A DNA stretch of 54,179 nucleotides from contig JAGHRX010000099.1 of NCBI GenBank assembly GCA_018066165.1, positions 1 through 54,179 of the forward strand. Direction: 5' to 3'. Numbering within the stretch: position 1 is the first letter of the stretch; the number at the start of each line of letters is the position of its first letter. The position numbers were made by a program, and so were the translations under genes. Shown in pieces: positions 28,550 to 34,923 of the stretch. The DNA comes from Candidatus Scybalocola fimicaballi (GTDB lineage: Bacteria; Bacteroidota; Bacteroidia; Bacteroidales; Paludibacteraceae). The notes under the pieces were generated by a model that worked only from the letters and a program-made list of their open reading frames with translations, was not told the DNA's origin and made no database searches.

Positions 28550-28640
28550 GGAAGATAAATAATTTGCTATCTTGGGTTGTCGTGTAAAACGAGAAGTGTC
28601 AGAGTTAAGGTTCAAAACATTTTATCAGATAATGGAAATA

Positions 28641-28675
28641 AGAGGGAATATCGATTTTAATATTCCCTCTTTTTT
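28641..28675 (+). terminator. Terminator hairpin marking the left island boundary
   Basis: AGAGGGAATAT / ATATTCCCTCT stem followed by TTTTT. Confidence 0.7.
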
Positions 28676-28688
28676 AATTGCTCAATGA

Positions 28689-29126
28689 TTAGTCCATAGT
28701 CATGATAAACGAATTCTGAATGACTTCTCCAATAGGAGTGTCATCAATAAAAAGTTCATCCCAGATTTTAGTTGGATCATCAAATAATGCGATTATATCC
28801 CCTGCAGAGCAAGAAGATGGAAGACCATCTATTCCGGATTTTTCCATCTCTATTATACCATCCCAATATGGATTTGGGAAAATACGTCTGACTTCAATTG
28901 GAAATTTTTCTGTTTCAATTGTGTAGAATTGACGATCTTTAACATAATAGAATAGAATGTTGAATCCGACTATTTCAACAAAATATCTAAAAATTGATTC
29001 AGGATAATCAGATTGAGCATCTCGTTTTGATGATTCTGACCATCCTAAGTCATTTTTTCTGATTGATTTGTCTCCATTAATTCCGACTCGAAAAAAATTA
29101 GGAACTATGATTTCGTTTTCCATCAT
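28689..29126 (-). CDS. Acidic 145 aa protein, unknown function (candidate immunity or antitoxin partner)
   Basis: By my count about 26 Asp/Glu versus 14 Lys/Arg. Its start overlaps the upstream stop (ATGA). No recognisable motif. Confidence 0.6.
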   Translation of the reverse strand: MMENEIIVPNFFRVGINGDKSIRKNDLGWSESSKRDAQSDYPESIFRYFVEIVGFNILFYYVKDRQFYTIETEKFPIEVRRIFPNPYWDGIIEMEKSGIDGLPSSCSAGDIIALFDDPTKIWDELFIDDTPIGEVIQNSFIMTMD

Positions 29127-29524
29127 TTTTTGTTTTTAGAGTTATACATTAATGCTTTCTGAACTAATCTATTATCTCGACCGTTAAGAGCATGAAAATT
29201 TCTTGGATCGTGAGATTTTCGTCCTACTTGTCCGGTATGCCAGTAATGAACATGTGGAATTTCATTTGATTTGAAATCCACACTTTTTACCAATCTATGG
29301 TTACGAAAATAATAGATGTGCTCAATACACTTACTTTCTTTAGAGTATGCGTAATAGGTAGTGTTCGCTGTGTTGGAGTAAGTCGTAGTTGGATTATTAC
29401 TCTTTGTGTCGCATTGAATAATTTTGATCTTACCCAACATTCCTATGCAAGAATACTCTCGTTTTTCTGATGGAATTCCACCAGTGCGACCGTATTTTGG
29501 GTCAAAAGCTCCTCTACCTCCCAT
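29123..29524 (-). CDS. Basic, His-rich 133 aa protein starting MGGRGAFDP, unknown function (candidate toxin or effector)
   Basis: About 23 Lys/Arg and 8 His versus 10 Asp/Glu. His cluster IPHVHYWHTGQVGRKSHDPRNFH. It overlaps the upstream gene by 11 nt. Confidence 0.6.
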   Translation of the reverse strand: MGGRGAFDPKYGRTGGIPSEKREYSCIGMLGKIKIIQCDTKSNNPTTTYSNTANTTYYAYSKESKCIEHIYYFRNHRLVKSVDFKSNEIPHVHYWHTGQVGRKSHDPRNFHALNGRDNRLVQKALMYNSKNKK

Positions 29525-30248
29525 TTCTCATTCTATTAAAGCGTTCATGATTAAAATGATGTATATCAAGTTGGTCTGGAAATATTCCCATTATCCATTC
29601 GTTGATATCTCCGTAAAGAATAATAGCTTCTGGAGCTATTATTCTAAGCATTTCCTTTATGCCGTTCTTAAAATAGAAATGAGAACGTTCGTCTCTTAAT
29701 ACACCTATTGTAGATAGCATTACAACGCCGCCTTTTTCATAACCATCAAAACAAACTTCATAAGAATCGTTTGTAGACCATTTCATGACAGGCATTACCT
29801 TACAACCATGCTCTTGATAATAGAATGCGGTAGAATGACTTCTTAACGTATTTGCAATGACAAGGGATAAAGGGTCGGTTACCTTCATAGAAAAATCAGG
29901 TTCGGCGATAAAGGCGTACCTTGAAAACTTGTCTTGGTATTTTTCAGGATTGTCCGCAACGTCATCCAGTATGTAATCAAAAACAAATGTTGTAATTCCT
30001 GTAGTGTTAGAACCTATGTTGTTAACCTTATCAAGCGTTATCAACTTGTCTGGGATTGGACCAGTGTATTTTTTGATTTGTGGAATTCCATACTTCCCCT
30101 GAAAAAAAGCATTCGAGCAATGCTCCATGCCGAAATTTCGACTTTTTTTACGAACCCATATTTCATGGGATTTTTCAATTTTGATGTTTGAGACCGTCTC
30201 ATTTTCATATTCAGGAAACAAACTCAAATAATTATGATTCATTCGCAT
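29514..30248 (-). CDS. DUF4417-like protein
   Basis: Motifs match my recollection of DUF4417: FVFDYILDD, EPDFSM, YYQEHGCKVMPVMKWS, CFDGYEKGGVVMLST, PEAIILYG. The family assignment is from memory and was not searched. Confidence 0.55.
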   Translation of the reverse strand: MRMNHNYLSLFPEYENETVSNIKIEKSHEIWVRKKSRNFGMEHCSNAFFQGKYGIPQIKKYTGPIPDKLITLDKVNNIGSNTTGITTFVFDYILDDVADNPEKYQDKFSRYAFIAEPDFSMKVTDPLSLVIANTLRSHSTAFYYQEHGCKVMPVMKWSTNDSYEVCFDGYEKGGVVMLSTIGVLRDERSHFYFKNGIKEMLRIIAPEAIILYGDINEWIMGIFPDQLDIHHFNHERFNRMRNGR

Positions 30249-30351
30249 ATTCTTTTATTTAAATGCGATTAATTACTGGTTATTGTTCTTTTTAGGAATA
30301 ATAACGTTAATTATTCAGCGATTATTTCACGATATATGCGACGATATGATG

Positions 30352-30359
30352 CAAAAATA
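30352..30359 (-). promoter_or_regulatory. -7 box TATTTTTG (minus strand) for the three-gene operon
   Basis: Perfect TAnnTTTG about 104 nt upstream of the ATG at 30248. The surrounding GATGCAAAAATATA..ATTTT also occurs at the ATPase promoter (36402-36420). Confidence 0.4.
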
Positions 30360-30515
30360 TATAATTTTGCATTGATTATTTGGTTTGTCACATTGTCGTG
30401 TTCTAAGGAATGACGTTCAATCGCTGTACAAACGTATTGCCCATTTGTCTGCCAGGACGAATGGGTATTTTCATTCCATAATTAGTATCATTTTGTCATA
30501 AAACCTCCTTTCTTT

Positions 30516-31586
30516 TTAGTGGATTTCTCTTGATGAATCCGATTTAAACATAAATATATTAGTTTCAAAACTAACTCTTCCTAACACAATCCATTTGTTT
30601 ATGTGATATTTGTTGGCAAATTTTGTGAACTCTCTTTGTATTTCTTGTGGATTGTTCAACCTAACCATTGGCTGATCATCCCAAATTAATTCAGGAATCA
30701 ATACGTTGGCAGCAAAAGAATTCGCTTCGATTTCCTCTTTTGAGATTTTCTCTTCATCTGGATCTATGACATTGACTTTGCCAATTCTATTTTCCTGTAG
30801 ATGTAATTTCAGGTGTCCTACTTCATGAAGTATGGCAAAGGCAAGATTATCTATCCTATTAAAACGTTTAGTGACAACAATACATGGAATTCCATCTGAA
30901 TAAAATGAAAAACCATCAATAGAAGCATGAGGAACTTTTTCGACGATGCAAAATTTCACACCATAAGACGACAAAATTCTTGTGACTCTATTTATGGTGT
31001 TTTGATTGTCATTAAAAGCCAAACTTAATTCTCCAGCAAGAGTGTCACATGCAGACTTGTCGAATTTCCCATTCGGCATTGGAAGTTGAGATGCTTCATA
31101 CATGGCAATCAAAGACCATGTCGCAATCATTCTTTTGTCCAAACCTGTCTTTTCTGAGCGATGAAAATATCCTTGTACAGCTTTCCTCTGAATACTAATA
31201 GAATCAAAATTCAAATCGTTTTTGCAAAAATGCAATCGCTCTGTTGCTGACAATGTATTCACACCTAACTTCTTAAATAATAATTTTAAGTCATATAGCT
31301 CCTCATACGCCACAAGTTCAAGTTCTGCTTTATGATTCTCATCTTCTTCAATTGTTTTTGTTGCAACTTCAAAATCATATTCAGCTTGCAACTGAATCCA
31401 TTTAGAAGCAGGAATATCCAAAACGGACTCCAATTTCTCTGCCACTAATAGGCTGATGCTCCTTTTCCCTTTTATGATTTCAGAAAGATGTGATGGTTGC
31501 ATATCTATCATGCTAGCAAGATTTTTTTGAGTTGTCTTGCGAGCTATCAGTGCTTCCTTTAATATAAGACCTGGATGCTTAACCAT
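30516..31586 (-). CDS. Fusion of a HigA-type XRE HTH domain and an ImmA/IrrE (COG2856) zinc metallopeptidase
   Basis: N-terminus MVKHPGLILKEAL...SHLSEIIKGKRSISLLVAEKL (HigA antidote pattern). HEXXH in AILHEVGHLKLH. The track start at 31643 is TTG, so I prefer the ATG at 31586. Confidence 0.8.
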   Translation of the reverse strand: MVKHPGLILKEALIARKTTQKNLASMIDMQPSHLSEIIKGKRSISLLVAEKLESVLDIPASKWIQLQAEYDFEVATKTIEEDENHKAELELVAYEELYDLKLLFKKLGVNTLSATERLHFCKNDLNFDSISIQRKAVQGYFHRSEKTGLDKRMIATWSLIAMYEASQLPMPNGKFDKSACDTLAGELSLAFNDNQNTINRVTRILSSYGVKFCIVEKVPHASIDGFSFYSDGIPCIVVTKRFNRIDNLAFAILHEVGHLKLHLQENRIGKVNVIDPDEEKISKEEIEANSFAANVLIPELIWDDQPMVRLNNPQEIQREFTKFANKYHINKWIVLGRVSFETNIFMFKSDSSREIH

Positions 31587-31627
31587 TATGATATCTTTAC
31601 TTGTCAATGACAATCGTTCTTTGCCAA

Positions 31628-31635
31628 CAAAAATA
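31628..31635 (-). promoter_or_regulatory. -7 box TATTTTTG (minus strand) for the HTH-peptidase gene
   Basis: Perfect TAnnTTTG 42 nt upstream of the ATG at 31586. A second match, TAGATTTG, lies at 31641-31648. Confidence 0.4.
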
Positions 31636-31692
31636 ATTATCAAATCTAATATTCACAAGTTTTTGAAAATAATTGTTTGAAATTTCTTAAAA

Positions 31693-31715
31693 AAATTCCC
31701 GATATGTGGGAATTT
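31693..31715. promoter_or_regulatory. Perfect 8-bp inverted repeat AAATTCCC-N7-GGGAATTT, candidate operator
   Basis: Lies in the divergent promoter region between the HTH-peptidase and the R-M gene. Direct AATTTCTT copies flank it at 31681 and 31711. Confidence 0.4.
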
Positions 31716-31807
31716 CTTGCTGCCTGATATGCGATTTTATTTGTATAGAATAATAAATATTTGATATTCGTATGGTGGATTTCCAACAATAAAATCAATA
31801 ATTTCTA

Positions 31808-31815
31808 TATCTTTG
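31808..31815 (+). promoter_or_regulatory. -7 box TATCTTTG for the R-M gene
   Basis: Perfect TAnnTTTG 28 nt upstream of the ATG at 31843. It overlaps the TTG start used by the ORF track, which supports 31843. Confidence 0.45.
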
Positions 31816-31842
31816 CCCACAAAGTATAATTCAAGAACTGCC

Positions 31843-34800
31843 ATGATTAATACATACGCGCAGAATGTCTCCGCACTTTTCAAGACGGGAGTCACTACCG
31901 AACACTCGTTTCGTGGATATCTGCAAACTCTCCTTGAATCTTTGTTGCCAAATTATATGGCTGTGAATGAGCCAAAGCGTTCGGCTTGTGGTGCTCCTGA
32001 CTATGCACTGATTGACAAGAAAAATAAGATTCCATACGCTTACGTAGAGGCAAAAGATTTGTTTGATAATGATCTTCGTGGTGTGAATCCAAAGATCCAT
32101 AAGGAGCAATTCGACCGTTACAAAAAAGCACTCTCACATGTTTGTTTCACCGACTATCTTGAATTCCATTTTTATGTCGACGGTGAGGCTGTCGACTCTG
32201 TATGTTTGCTTGAACCAAATTCGAAGGGTGGATTCAACGTCGTCAACGAGGATAAATTCATCAGTGTGCTTCAGTCGTGGGCTGATTGCCCGATGCAGAA
32301 GATTACGTCGGCTTCACGTCTCGCTGAAATCATGGCCCATAAAGCCCAACTTCTTAAAGAGTCTACTCTAAAGACTTTGGAAACGGAAGAAAACTCTGAA
32401 ATCCATGATCAGTTCGCCACTTTTAAGCAGGTCTTAATTAATGACCTCACTGAAGCAAGTTTTGCCGATATCTATGCCCAGACCATTGCCTACGGAATGT
32501 TTGCCGCTCGTCTGCATGACAAAACTCCTGAAGATTTCAGCAGACAAGAGGCAGCGACTCTAATTCCAACGTCGAACCCATTTTTGAGGAGGATTTTCCA
32601 AAATATCGCAGGTTTCGACCTCGACTCTCGTGTCGCATGGATTGTAGATGATCTTGCCAAAGCTTTTGCCGCTACGGATATGGATAAAGTGATGGGAAGA
32701 TACCGTCAGAATGCGTTACACGAAGATCCGCTTATCCATTTCTATGAGGATTTCCTGGCCGCTTACGATAAAAATTTAAGAAAATCATGCGGAGTCTACT
32801 ATACGCCCCAATCTGTGGTTCGCTTTATAGTTCGTGCCGTCGACAATATTCTTATTAGAGATTTTGATTTTCCAGACGGGTTGGCTGACGACAAACAAGA
32901 GATTTATAAACTTAAGGATGCTATAGATAAGGAGTATACTAAGAAACTACACCGTGTGCAGATTCTTGATCCAGCCACTGGTACTGGCACATTTCTTGCT
33001 GAGACGGTGCGACAGATCTATAAGAAATTTGAGGGAAACGAAGGAATGTGGCCAAGCTATGTGGAGAGCGGATTACGTCCACGATTGAATGGTTTTGAAC
33101 TTCTTATGGCTCCGTACACCATCGCTCATCTTAAATTGGATATGCTGATGAATGGCGACGAGAATGCTCCGACGTCAAATAACAGAACAAGAATATTCCT
33201 TACCAACTCGCTTGAAGAGCATCATCGTGATGCGAACACATTGTTTGCAGCATGGTTGAGTGATGAGAGCAGACAGGCGGACAGCGTCAAGAGAGACTGC
33301 CCTGTGATGGTGATGATGGGAAATCCACCTTATTCTGTCTCTTCTCATAATGATGGAGATTGGATTAGAAATCTATTGTCGCATTATAAGAAAGATTTGA
33401 ATGAAAGAAATATTCAGCCTTTGAGCGACGATTATATCAAATTCATTCGTCTTGGCCAGCATTTTATAGAGAAGAACGGACAAGGAGTGCTTGGATATAT
33501 CAGCAACAATTCCTATTTGGATGGTTTGATTCATCGCCAGATGCGAAAGACACTGCTTGATGTGTTTGATGATATTTATATTGTGAATCTTCACGGCAAC
33601 AGCAAAAGAAAGGAGACTGCTCCAGATGGAGGAAAAGACGAGAATGTTTTCGATATTATGGTTGGCACAAACATTGGTATTTTTGTGAAGAGACCGAATA
33701 AATCATCAAAGAAAAAGAACGAGCCAGCCACAGTGCATTATCTTGACCTATATGGAGCAAGAAAGGATAAATACGATGAATTAGACAATTTGTCGTTGCC
33801 TGCTCTCGTAGAGACGCACGGACGTGCGTGTCAAGAAAAACATGCGTCTAATGAATGTCCTCAATGGAAGATTCTTGATTGTCCAGCCCCAAATTATTTC
33901 TTTGTTCCAAAAGACTTCGGTGCTCAGGAAGAATATGAGAAAGGATTGAAGATTGATGAATTGTTTAAGAATTTTAATTCGGGAATAAAAACACAAAGAG
34001 ATGATGCGTCGATATTCATTGATGAAAAATCTTGTTCTGATATGTTTTTAGATTGGCAAAATCTTTCAGTTGATGAATTAAAATATAAATATGGATTTAA
34101 TGATGTGAGGGATTGGCAAGTTGCTCTTGCTAAAAATGATGTCCTATCAAATAAAAGATTGTCTGATAAAATTACTTATAGACCTTTTGACAACAGAGTT
34201 TGTATTTATACAGGCAAAACAAAAGGGATAATGGGATATCCTAGATATAACTTTATGAAGCATATGTTTAACAGTAACATTTGCTTGACAATAACTCGTC
34301 AAACTTCAACAGATTGGAGACATTGTTTGATTATTGATTGTATTGCAGATATGTGCACCATTTCTGCTCGGTCAAAAGAAGGCTCTTATCTTTTCCCTCT
34401 CTACCTCTACGATGAGGCTGGTGGACGTCATTTGAATATCAAGGAAGAGATGTTAGGCGGACGAAACGCAGAGGAGTTTTTTGCTTATATCTATGCTGTG
34501 CTTCACTCTCCAAGCTACAGGGAGAAGTATAAAGAGTTTTTGAAGATAGATTTTCCCCGTATTCCTCAGCCTACGGATGAAAAAGAGTATAAGAGACTTG
34601 TGGATTTGGGAAATGAACTGATCGATCTGCATCTGATGCGAGCAAGTTTGCCAATGGCATCACTGCCTAAATTCCCAAAAGCAGGAAGCAACGAAGTGGA
34701 GATCCCGAAATATGTGGATGGATGCGTTTGGATAAACAATGAGCAATATTTCTCTGGAGTAAGTGAGACAGCGTGGGGCTTTTATGTAGGAGGTTATCAG

Positions 34801-34923
34801 CCAGCGCAGAAATGGTTGAAAGACCGTAAGAGTCGCACACTGTCGTTGGATGACATTCGTCATTATCAGAAAATTATCGCGATATTGGATAAGACGGCGG
34901 AGATAATGAAGACGATAGGGTAG
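31843..34923 (+). CDS. Single-polypeptide type IIG-like restriction-modification enzyme (PD-ExK nuclease motif, N6-adenine methylase, type-ISP-like C-terminal specificity domain, no helicase)
   Basis: GAPDYALID..YAYVEAKD (PD...ExK). SAM motif ILDPATGTGTFL precedes the catalytic MMGNPPYS. The C-terminus YIYAVLHSPSYREKYKEFLKIDFPRIP ... GGYQPAQKWLKDRKSRTLS is typical of the type ISP/IIG C-terminal domain. Confidence 0.8.
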   Translation: MINTYAQNVSALFKTGVTTEHSFRGYLQTLLESLLPNYMAVNEPKRSACGAPDYALIDKKNKIPYAYVEAKDLFDNDLRGVNPKIHKEQFDRYKKALSHVCFTDYLEFHFYVDGEAVDSVCLLEPNSKGGFNVVNEDKFISVLQSWADCPMQKITSASRLAEIMAHKAQLLKESTLKTLETEENSEIHDQFATFKQVLINDLTEASFADIYAQTIAYGMFAARLHDKTPEDFSRQEAATLIPTSNPFLRRIFQNIAGFDLDSRVAWIVDDLAKAFAATDMDKVMGRYRQNALHEDPLIHFYEDFLAAYDKNLRKSCGVYYTPQSVVRFIVRAVDNILIRDFDFPDGLADDKQEIYKLKDAIDKEYTKKLHRVQILDPATGTGTFLAETVRQIYKKFEGNEGMWPSYVESGLRPRLNGFELLMAPYTIAHLKLDMLMNGDENAPTSNNRTRIFLTNSLEEHHRDANTLFAAWLSDESRQADSVKRDCPVMVMMGNPPYSVSSHNDGDWIRNLLSHYKKDLNERNIQPLSDDYIKFIRLGQHFIEKNGQGVLGYISNNSYLDGLIHRQMRKTLLDVFDDIYIVNLHGNSKRKETAPDGGKDENVFDIMVGTNIGIFVKRPNKSSKKKNEPATVHYLDLYGARKDKYDELDNLSLPALVETHGRACQEKHASNECPQWKILDCPAPNYFFVPKDFGAQEEYEKGLKIDELFKNFNSGIKTQRDDASIFIDEKSCSDMFLDWQNLSVDELKYKYGFNDVRDWQVALAKNDVLSNKRLSDKITYRPFDNRVCIYTGKTKGIMGYPRYNFMKHMFNSNICLTITRQTSTDWRHCLIIDCIADMCTISARSKEGSYLFPLYLYDEAGGRHLNIKEEMLGGRNAEEFFAYIYAVLHSPSYREKYKEFLKIDFPRIPQPTDEKEYKRLVDLGNELIDLHLMRASLPMASLPKFPKAGSNEVEIPKYVDGCVWINNEQYFSGVSETAWGFYVGGYQPAQKWLKDRKSRTLSLDDIRHYQKIIAILDKTAEIMKTIG

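Follow-up and report, generated by a model that had tools for sequence, protein, structure and literature searches.

What does a protein of the DUF4417 family, for which no function is described in the literature that we searched, do beside one strongly basic and one strongly acidic partner? The question is raised by three genes, here called A, B and C, on contig JAGHRX010000099.1 of the Bacteroidales bacterium Candidatus Scybalocola fimicaballi (assembly GCA_018066165.1), and was approached by analysing the whole stretch of 54,179 nucleotides (nt) in which they lie, referred to below as the window. An initial annotation of this DNA had described the three genes as overlapping minus-strand open reading frames (ORFs) and had proposed that they are a toxin-immunity or defence module. 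Their layout is exactly as it had been given: A and B overlap by 11 nt (29514-29524), and an ATGA at 29123-29126 is common to B and C. The answer that we favour, with a confidence just short of even, is that A, B and C, together with an adjoining gene for a helix-turn-helix (HTH) protein with an M78 peptidase domain, form a domesticated, repressor-controlled effector/immunity cassette of phage origin, present here as a chromosomal copy. The larger finding is that DUF4417 and a short N-terminal tag, GGRG, are coupled in both directions across three phyla, and neither the tag nor this coupling was found in the literature searched.

DUF4417 genes and GGRG-tagged genes occur together

Protein B begins with MGGRGAF, and an alignment of its family (~120 clusters) shows M1, G2 and R4 to be invariant and G5 to be kept in at least 90%. 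The same start recurs in the Bacteroidales prophages L027, L028 and L031 (L numbers denote the loci compared), where a second DUF4417 gene is overlapped by 11 nt by the gene of another MGGRGAF protein, the C-terminal domain of which matches CdiA_C with an E value (E) of 1e-5, just below the Pfam cut-off. Because of this CdiA_C-like body behind MGGRGAF, the tag was tested systematically. For the forward test, IMG/VR was scanned with a DUF4417 profile, 213 relatives were confirmed, and 80 loci were kept. The ORF directly downstream of DUF4417 starts with MG[GSA]RG in 54 of these 80 phage loci, most often at a spacing of -1 nt (18 cases) or -11 nt (16 cases), and 39 more tagged ORFs lie behind the first one, in arrays of up to five tagged genes. 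For the reverse test, IMG/VR was scanned with only a DNA pattern encoding MGGRGASSG, which gave 102 evaluable ORFs, and a DUF4417 gene was found within 2.5 kb and on the same strand in 97 of the 102 (95%), upstream in 78 and downstream in 19.

At G2, G3, R4 and G5 the tag is encoded by differing synonymous codons, hence its constraint is on the peptide. A nucleotide-level signal resembling a Shine-Dalgarno sequence (GGAGG) was considered for MGGRG and is ruled out by the same variation. The host protease Prp cuts the L27/80alpha motif between F and the next residue (PMC5744158). A leader that resembles this motif of ribosomal protein L27 and 80alpha head proteins, and that ends in NLQ(F/L)F just before GGRGAG, is carried by three tagged proteins (L040:2652-3368, L043:7378-8082 and L044:4069-4734). 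Methionine aminopeptidase removes Met before Gly, and together with the Prp-type leaders this suggests that function depends on a free N-terminal Gly-Gly-Arg-Gly.

The tagged proteins carry interchangeable bodies

Behind the tag and a Gly/Ser-rich linker we found 27 mutually unrelated bodies. They include the toxin families ADPrib_exo_Tox (E 2e-16) and Gln_amidase (E 2e-14), both above the Pfam cut-offs, and one tagged body with a weak PARP/ART-PolyVal match. The bodies resembling ADP-ribosyltransferases (ART) and deamidases are followed by acidic ORFs of 66-78 amino acids (aa). The tagged proteins thus combine a conserved N-terminal part with variable C-terminal bodies, some of them toxin domains, as polymorphic toxins do. 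The association of MGGRG with toxin modules, which the initial annotation had offered loosely, is therefore borne out by a conserved tag on ADPrib_exo_Tox, Gln_amidase and CdiA_C-like bodies; its description of DUF4417 as a family without an assigned role had the family right but missed the partnership with the tag.

The tag rule also holds in phages of Streptococcus and in cluster-A mycobacteriophages; in both, the start codons of public annotations lie downstream of the tag. Gp1 of Mycobacterium phage PackMan is a DUF4417 protein (E 3e-64), and the frame of gp2 (L117:1050-2114) opens with MGGRGGASG at 1050, followed by a Gly-rich stretch of ~85 residues and a HExxH body; the annotated gp2 start at 1359 omits 103 codons. 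The B homologue of phage phiNJ2 (L010/L079) has its true start, MGGRGASSGMS, upstream of the annotated one, and the annotated start of the gene after DUF4417 in phage A25 (L011) is also too far downstream, so that the tag is missed. Gp108 of Mycobacterium phage CicholasNage (L118:3084-3428), the gene of which overlaps the end of DUF4417, has the variant tag MGRGRHSG and in its body a TLYHRTS motif, which we take to be reminiscent of ADP-ribosyltransferases. PackMan gp2, CicholasNage gp108 and several other tagged bodies matched no Pfam family. Up to five MG[GS]RG genes with successive 1-nt overlaps follow a single DUF4417 gene in the IMG/VR loci L074, L083, L049 and L198; a B-family member takes the place right behind the first tagged gene in L074 and in L083, and the last place in the array of L049.

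Tagged genes lie among phage packaging genes

The position of these genes in phages is recurrent. DUF4417 and the B homologue stand just before the small terminase gene (terS) in the Streptococcus phages phiNJ2 and A25, and in the prophages L027, L028 and L031 the order is B-C-A, immediately before an ORF of 572-602 aa that is taken as the large terminase from its position and a sub-threshold Terminase_6N match (E 0.012). In L140, L142 and L153 the order is TerL (PDB 5oe8, E 2e-125), a gene of 462-476 aa, a tagged protein, a B-family protein and DUF4417. The 462-476-aa gene is a putative portal gene by its position, and a gene of 392-399 aa comes after DUF4417 in L140 and L142.

The triad in Bacteroidales and the order of its decay

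The contexts of the triad come from the contigs that encode it and from scanning a single genome of each species, and A, B and C were located by local hidden Markov model searches. Clustered at 90% identity, the families number 62 (A), ~121 (B) and 162 (C) clusters, nearly all from Bacteroidales metagenomes and none of them named. All three genes are present in essentially every locus searched and syntenic in more than 30 loci, most of which are ordered A-B-C with the same 11-nt A/B overlap; the order is B-C-A in L007-L009, L027, L028 and L031. The genes, which had been proposed to be one cassette, do occur together, with the A/B overlap mostly conserved. Intact triads with 40-80% identity occupy many unrelated chromosomal sites without phage structural genes, and the pairwise ratio of nonsynonymous to synonymous substitutions (dN/dS) is ~0.13-0.27, with dS saturated.

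Gene C follows B in all Bacteroidales loci and is never missing from those that keep A or B. Loci L030 and L033 have a truncated A beside intact B and C; L240 has a frameshifted A and an intact C; and L035 and L036 have lost A and the N-terminus of B and keep C at full length. Orphan C genes, with 63% identity to C of the window, are intact in L241:7001-7435, L242:7001-7435 and L243:3484-3918, with no A or B remnants within 7 kb, and their cluster occurs on at least 24 contigs. The neighbours of these orphans are a Transpeptidase-family gene and unannotated ORFs. By its retention and its orphans, C behaves like the orphan immunity genes of polymorphic toxin systems, an analogy that lends the toxin-immunity proposal some weight. 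The charge pairing on which that proposal had leaned is not a general requirement, because a C-like partner is missing beside the B homologues of Firmicutes phages.

Predicted properties of A, B and C

Protein A matches Pfam DUF4417 (PF14386) with an E value of 5.4e-34 and 117.7 bits (cut-off 28.9) over profile positions 4-170 of 183, so that its family had been named correctly from its motifs, all of which are present; it also matches phrog_8680 and phrog_940. Among deposited phage genomes, 492 contain DUF4417 (Mycobacterium 384, Streptococcus 57, Gordonia 28), and in many phages the protein has a ParB-like N-terminal domain; according to the literature, the ParB-CTPase fold in phages is frequently fused to DUF4417 or to DNA methyltransferases. 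The AlphaFold model of A has an alpha/beta fold, with a predicted local distance difference test (pLDDT) score of 87.5. In the broad profile, D91, Q145, W157, C166, F167 and G169 are invariant across the family, and the PDFS motif, N133, R136 and S179 are nearly so. This pattern favours an enzyme over a passive adaptor, and from its model A is predicted to be an alpha/beta enzyme-like partner of the tag. A Foldseek comparison of the model with PDB gave nothing at E<=0.001; the best matches (E 0.056, template modelling (TM) score at most 0.35) are mixed and include many TIM-barrel enzymes. Against BFVD, the true homologues are followed by models of phage queuine tRNA-ribosyltransferases (TGT; DpdA-like), with E 1.7e-3 to 0.1, probability 0.8-1.0 and TM 0.39-0.45. 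TGT is absent from the top 50 PDB fold matches of A and from the PDB profile searches, and aligning the broad DUF4417 profile with DpdA of phage 9g by hhalign gave a probability of 0.2%. Because DUF4417 and this DpdA show no sequence relation, the TGT idea stays only a lead.

Protein B contains 23 K+R, 10 D+E and 7 His residues (net charge +13, isoelectric point 9.8), and C contains 14 K+R and 26 D+E (net charge -12, isoelectric point 4.35), in agreement with the charges and the His-rich composition reported before. Besides the tag, the invariant residues of B include S50, N51, N54, T55, Y57, D83, H91, H93, R102 and N109. Its model (pLDDT 85.6) is a beta-meander followed by a C-terminal helix, for which Foldseek found no PDB fold at E<=0.001 and weak beta-sheet resemblance only, and searches of Pfam, NCBIfam, PADLOC and PDB (sequence and profile) gave no family. 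By hhalign (probability 95%, E 4e-8), B is homologous to the 127-aa protein that follows DUF4417 in phages of Streptococcus, a relation visible only by profile comparison, as tblastn of B against deposited phages found nothing. An HNH-like nuclease, considered from residues of the pattern PHxH...H-D...N, had no match to a Pfam member even at E<=10 and no fold match, and is speculation only. The basic, His-rich composition of B may point to an effector that binds nucleic acids or depends on a metal. Of the three families, that of C is the most conserved (69% mean column identity), and C has no match in Pfam, NCBIfam, PADLOC or PDB (sequence and profile). It is specific to Bacteroidales and a candidate immunity or neutralising protein.

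An HTH-M78 regulator adjoins the triad

The regulator gene matches HTH_3 (2e-10) and Peptidase_M78 (9e-8) of Pfam and, in PADLOC, PD-Lambda-2_B (E 7e-35 over 332 residues), RmrA, capP (2.4e-8) and capH (3e-4); its HTH is of the HigA type. It had been noted before as a neighbour of the triad, but it is a linked part of the module, as an HTH-M78 gene adjoins the triad in ~12 of ~20 non-redundant loci, permuted gene orders included. One fused gene, pointing the same way as the triad, encodes the regulator in the window, L004, L007, L012-L017, L020 and L029; in L001 and L025 it is instead divided between two divergent genes. Another small ORF (128 aa, MKLLSVKRYGVKLKA...), which has no Pfam match, precedes the triad instead of HTH-M78 in L021:8604-8990 and L023:8600-8824 and may be an alternative regulator. 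The listed regulator ORF of the window starts at TTG 31643; an ATG at 31586 (MVKHPGLILKEAL...) fits the beginning of the HTH at residue 22-28 better and is likely the true start.

Between the regulator gene and A lies a TGCAAAA-N-TTTTGCA palindrome, which is perfect or near-perfect in the window, L004, L013, L014, L016 and L029 and degenerate in L017 and L020. The palindrome of the window overlaps a TAnnTTTG-like box ~100 nt upstream of the start codon of A and, judged from its sequence and place, is likely an operator.

The stop codon of the fused HTH-M78 gene is immediately followed by a conserved RNA-like element of ~70-85 nt with three helices. In nhmmer searches it occurred once per locus in 16 of 16 fused-regulator loci and in none of the phage loci; besides that of the window, examples lie at L004:7041-7151, L016:9056-9165, L014:2503-2619 and L007:7599-7703. 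Pairing is kept by different sequences, both in helix P1 (GAAC/GUUC, GAGAC/GUCUC and GGGCG/CGUCC) and in helix P2 (CCCAU/AUGGG, CCUCGUG/CACGAGG and UCUCCUGU/ACAGGAGA), and the loop of P3 has a conserved CGAUU. The element was folded by single-sequence and constrained folds; RNAalifold on a MAFFT alignment of the intergenic region gave no pairs because the helices were misaligned. Rfam contained no match.

The locus in the window and neighbouring genes

The features of the locus are listed in Table 1.

Table 1. Positions of the triad, its regulator and adjoining features in the window
Feature	Position	Strand or place	Basis
Gene A, DUF4417 protein, 244 aa	29514-30248	minus	ORF list
Gene B, basic, His-rich, 133 aa (tag codons 29504-29524)	29123-29524	minus	ORF list
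Gene C, acidic, 145 aa	28689-29126	minus	ORF list
Terminator-like hairpin closing the operon 3' of C	28640-28671	minus	13-pair stem, then T-rich tail
Palindrome ATGCAAAATTATATATTTTTGCAT, putative operator	30349-30372	no strand	recurs at the equivalent place in other loci
RNA-like element with three helices, adjoining the 3' end of the regulator gene	30408-30476	minus	nhmmer and folding
HTH_3 + Peptidase_M78 (ImmA/IrrE-like) regulator gene	30516-31643	minus	Pfam and PADLOC
Type ISP/IIG restriction-modification (R-M) enzyme	31813-34923	upstream side of the triad	Type_ISP_C E 6e-75

The GC content over 29-32 kb is 0.33-0.36, compared to 0.43-0.48 in the flanks, so the operon is indeed richer in AT than the backbone, and the low-GC island extends from ~28.6 to 39 kb. 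Between 31813 and 38521, it also holds an AAA_14/DUF4143 ATPase (PADLOC PDC-S01, E 2e-90) and a 475-aa ATPase_2 protein. The large ORFs that were scanned, at 21.9-28.5 kb and at 30.5-41.8 kb, matched no Pfam mobility family (integrase, transposase), and Pfam and PADLOC agree with the earlier account of an HTH-ImmA/IrrE gene and an R-M enzyme as neighbours in an island without mobility genes. A tRNA search of the whole window found none. PADLOC-DB v2.0.0 contained zero families matching A, B or C at E<=0.1, in line with the statement that no named defence system has this composition. The home of the system is the packaging/head block of phages and not a classical defence island.

Among 113 neighbour proteins of 16 triad loci, PADLOC recognised seven regulators and MADS-like (mad3, mad8), AriA-like, PDC-S01 and PDC-S02 proteins. 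L001 has SNF2, Eco57I and YoeB genes as neighbours, L007 has KilA-N, a methyltransferase and an AAA_14/DUF4143 gene, and several triad loci sit amid housekeeping genes. An AAA_14/DUF4143 gene beside the triad was also seen in L021 and L023, by eye from the ORF sequences and without a family search. At L034:1914-6256, ORFs of 294 aa and 1153 aa adjoin the triad that resemble Cas1 and Cas9 by eye, no family search by name having been made.

Comparison with known systems

In the window, B starts with MGGRGAF and overlaps the DUF4417 gene by 11 nt, which places the pair among the DUF4417/GGRG-tag cassettes, defined by a gene for an MG[GSA]RG protein that lies on the same strand as a DUF4417 gene and only a few nt from it. 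The closest counterparts of these are the MuF polymorphic toxins (Jamet et al. 2017, PMC5576092), including the Bxa family of Bacteroidales (PMC11699363), which likewise lie in the phage head/packaging gene block, join a conserved N-terminal part to interchangeable toxin bodies (ADP-ribosyltransferase, glutamine deamidase, nuclease) and have small immunity-like ORFs downstream. Unlike in MuF toxins, the conserved part is a GGRG tag of 5-9 residues plus linker, and Pfam finds no MuF (Phage_Mu_F) domain on A, B or C. The conserved DUF4417 is a separate gene that can be followed by several tagged genes, the commonest body (B) is no recognised toxin, and the copy of the window lies outside any prophage.

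Capsid-targeting sequences of phage T4, on internal proteins and Alt, are also short N-terminal signals among head genes. For a dedicated partner of the DUF4417 type, we know of no counterpart in T4 or 80alpha. The head proteins of 80alpha that are processed by Prp (PMC5744158) share with the tagged proteins a short N-terminal signal among head genes, and an NLQFF leader precedes GGRG in three of the latter. Unlike these signals, the GGRG tag would stay at the mature N-terminus and not be removed, and entry of tagged proteins into the capsid is only putative.

Pairs of HTH and M78 proteins are known to switch immune operons: upon DNA damage, or in the presence of single-stranded DNA, the peptidase cleaves the repressor (10.1101/2022.04.27.489752; PMC13228613). 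As in CapH/CapP and ImmR/ImmA, HTH and M78 domains are encoded beside a conflict operon, with a palindrome over the promoter region; unlike in CapH/CapP, the regulator is usually one fused protein of 356-375 aa with an RNA-like element after its gene, and both cleavage and a response to DNA damage are putative here. The defence system PD-Lambda-2 consists of a HigB-like A, an HTH-M78 protein and a P4-antitoxin-like C (Vassallo et al. 2022, PMC9519451), of which only the HTH-M78 component is recognisable here. Membership in PD-Lambda-2 was rejected, as the three ORFs have no PADLOC match and the interval 31644-31812 is too small for a HigB gene. Membership of B or C in a known type II toxin-antitoxin family was rejected as well, given that Pfam, NCBIfam and PADLOC contain no match and only the HTH of the regulator is HigA-like.

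A proposed mechanism and its alternatives

Phages of Bacteroidota, Bacillota and Actinomycetota encode DUF4417 beside one to five tagged proteins. According to the mechanism that we propose, the mature N-terminus of the latter would be GGRG(A/S), formed from MGGRG by loss of Met or by removal of a Prp-type leader. The most probable role of DUF4417 is that of an enzyme or adaptor for this free N-terminus: having recognised it, DUF4417 would process the tagged protein, activate it or load it, with a probable link to the phage head. B, the commonest tagged body, would be the candidate effector, and the acidic C, the translation of which is coupled to that of B, would most likely bind B and neutralise it, much as an immunity protein does. 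The HTH-M78 protein would repress the cassette at the palindromic operator over the promoter, and stress or infection would lead to self- or trans-cleavage by the M78 peptidase and thereby to expression, which would make the cassette an inducible conflict module.

Several points weigh against this proposal. PDB sequence and profile searches with A, B and C, and fold searches with A and B, gave no structural match from which an activity could be assigned. Toxicity of B is doubtful, as its homologues in Firmicutes phages stand without a C-like partner, and since B is the conserved rather than the variable tagged body, it might be part of a structure or core instead of an effector. The order of decay, with A lost first and C last, could equally come from deletions entering from one side. 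Virion association of the tagged proteins is deduced only from gene position, and the census of defence genes is merely suggestive, because it has no background control. The triads in L019 and L024 have no regulator, and the conserved RNA-like element 3' of the regulator gene is left unexplained.

A plainer explanation, close to that of the initial annotation, would be a type II toxin-antitoxin or toxin-immunity pair acting in abortive-infection defence, with B as toxin, C as antidote and DUF4417 as an accessory or unrelated co-transcribed gene. The opposite charges and the start/stop overlap of B and C would fit, and so would the retained and orphan C, the defence-type neighbours and the adjoining HTH-M78 gene, with its likeness to PD-Lambda-2_B and its HigA-like HTH. 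We nevertheless consider such a pair unlikely: it leaves out the near-obligate coupling of DUF4417 and tag, B and C lack matches to toxin-antitoxin families or PADLOC, B is found without C in Firmicutes phages, and C is more conserved than B, which is unusual in antidotes. The triad might also be a decaying or neutral prophage remnant, left over from a head/packaging cassette and functionless in the chromosome, as the same genes stand beside a terminase in the prophages L027, L028 and L031, truncated and frameshifted copies occur, and the island is low in GC. This is quite improbable in view of the intact triads in many unrelated sites, the dN/dS values (0.13-0.27), and the dedicated regulator with its conserved operator-like palindrome.

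Two further explanations involve a TGT-like chemistry. DUF4417 could be a TGT/DpdA-like base exchanger for DNA or RNA modification, with the ParB-like fusion mirroring DpdB and with B and C as accessory proteins, cooperating with the R-M enzyme. The BFVD matches to phage queuine tRNA-ribosyltransferases point this way, as do the weak, mixed PDB matches with their many TIM-barrel enzymes, the fusion of ParB-CTPase folds to DUF4417 or to DNA methyltransferases in phages, and the presence of two invariant Asp and one invariant Cys in DUF4417. Set against the hhalign result for phage 9g DpdA, the absence of TGT from the PDB fold and profile matches and of nearby deazaguanine synthesis genes, and the tag and toxin bodies that such an activity alone leaves unexplained, the chance that it is correct appears slimmer still. 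The last and faintest prospect is that DUF4417 couples tagged proteins, through the free alpha-amino group of their N-terminal Gly-Gly, covalently to a phage head component or to phage DNA, the chromosomal triad being the host-captured version. The reaction would be a TGT-like glycosyl transfer with the protein amine as incoming nucleophile and the ParB-like domain in the role of DpdB, and the induced triad would load B onto the DNA of an infecting phage or into its heads, thereby sabotaging the phage. If true, a single loader could deliver whichever effector bears the GGRG tag to the next host along with the genome.

Significance

The two-way coupling gives DUF4417, a family present in ~490 deposited phage genomes, a testable role as obligate partner of an N-terminal GGRG tag. 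It also exposes annotation errors, as the start codons given for phiNJ2, A25 and PackMan miss the tag. The tag is simple enough to be used for the discovery of effectors and possibly for the loading of cargo. If the effector/immunity reading is true, these cassettes are a second phage-borne polymorphic effector system beside the MuF toxins, extending over three bacterial phyla. On sequence grounds, we file the cassette of the window as a putative variant of such a polymorphic effector/immunity system, of phage origin and under an ImmA-like switch. Its presence in gut and rumen Bacteroidales suggests that these bacteria have captured a phage effector/immunity unit and placed it under such a switch.

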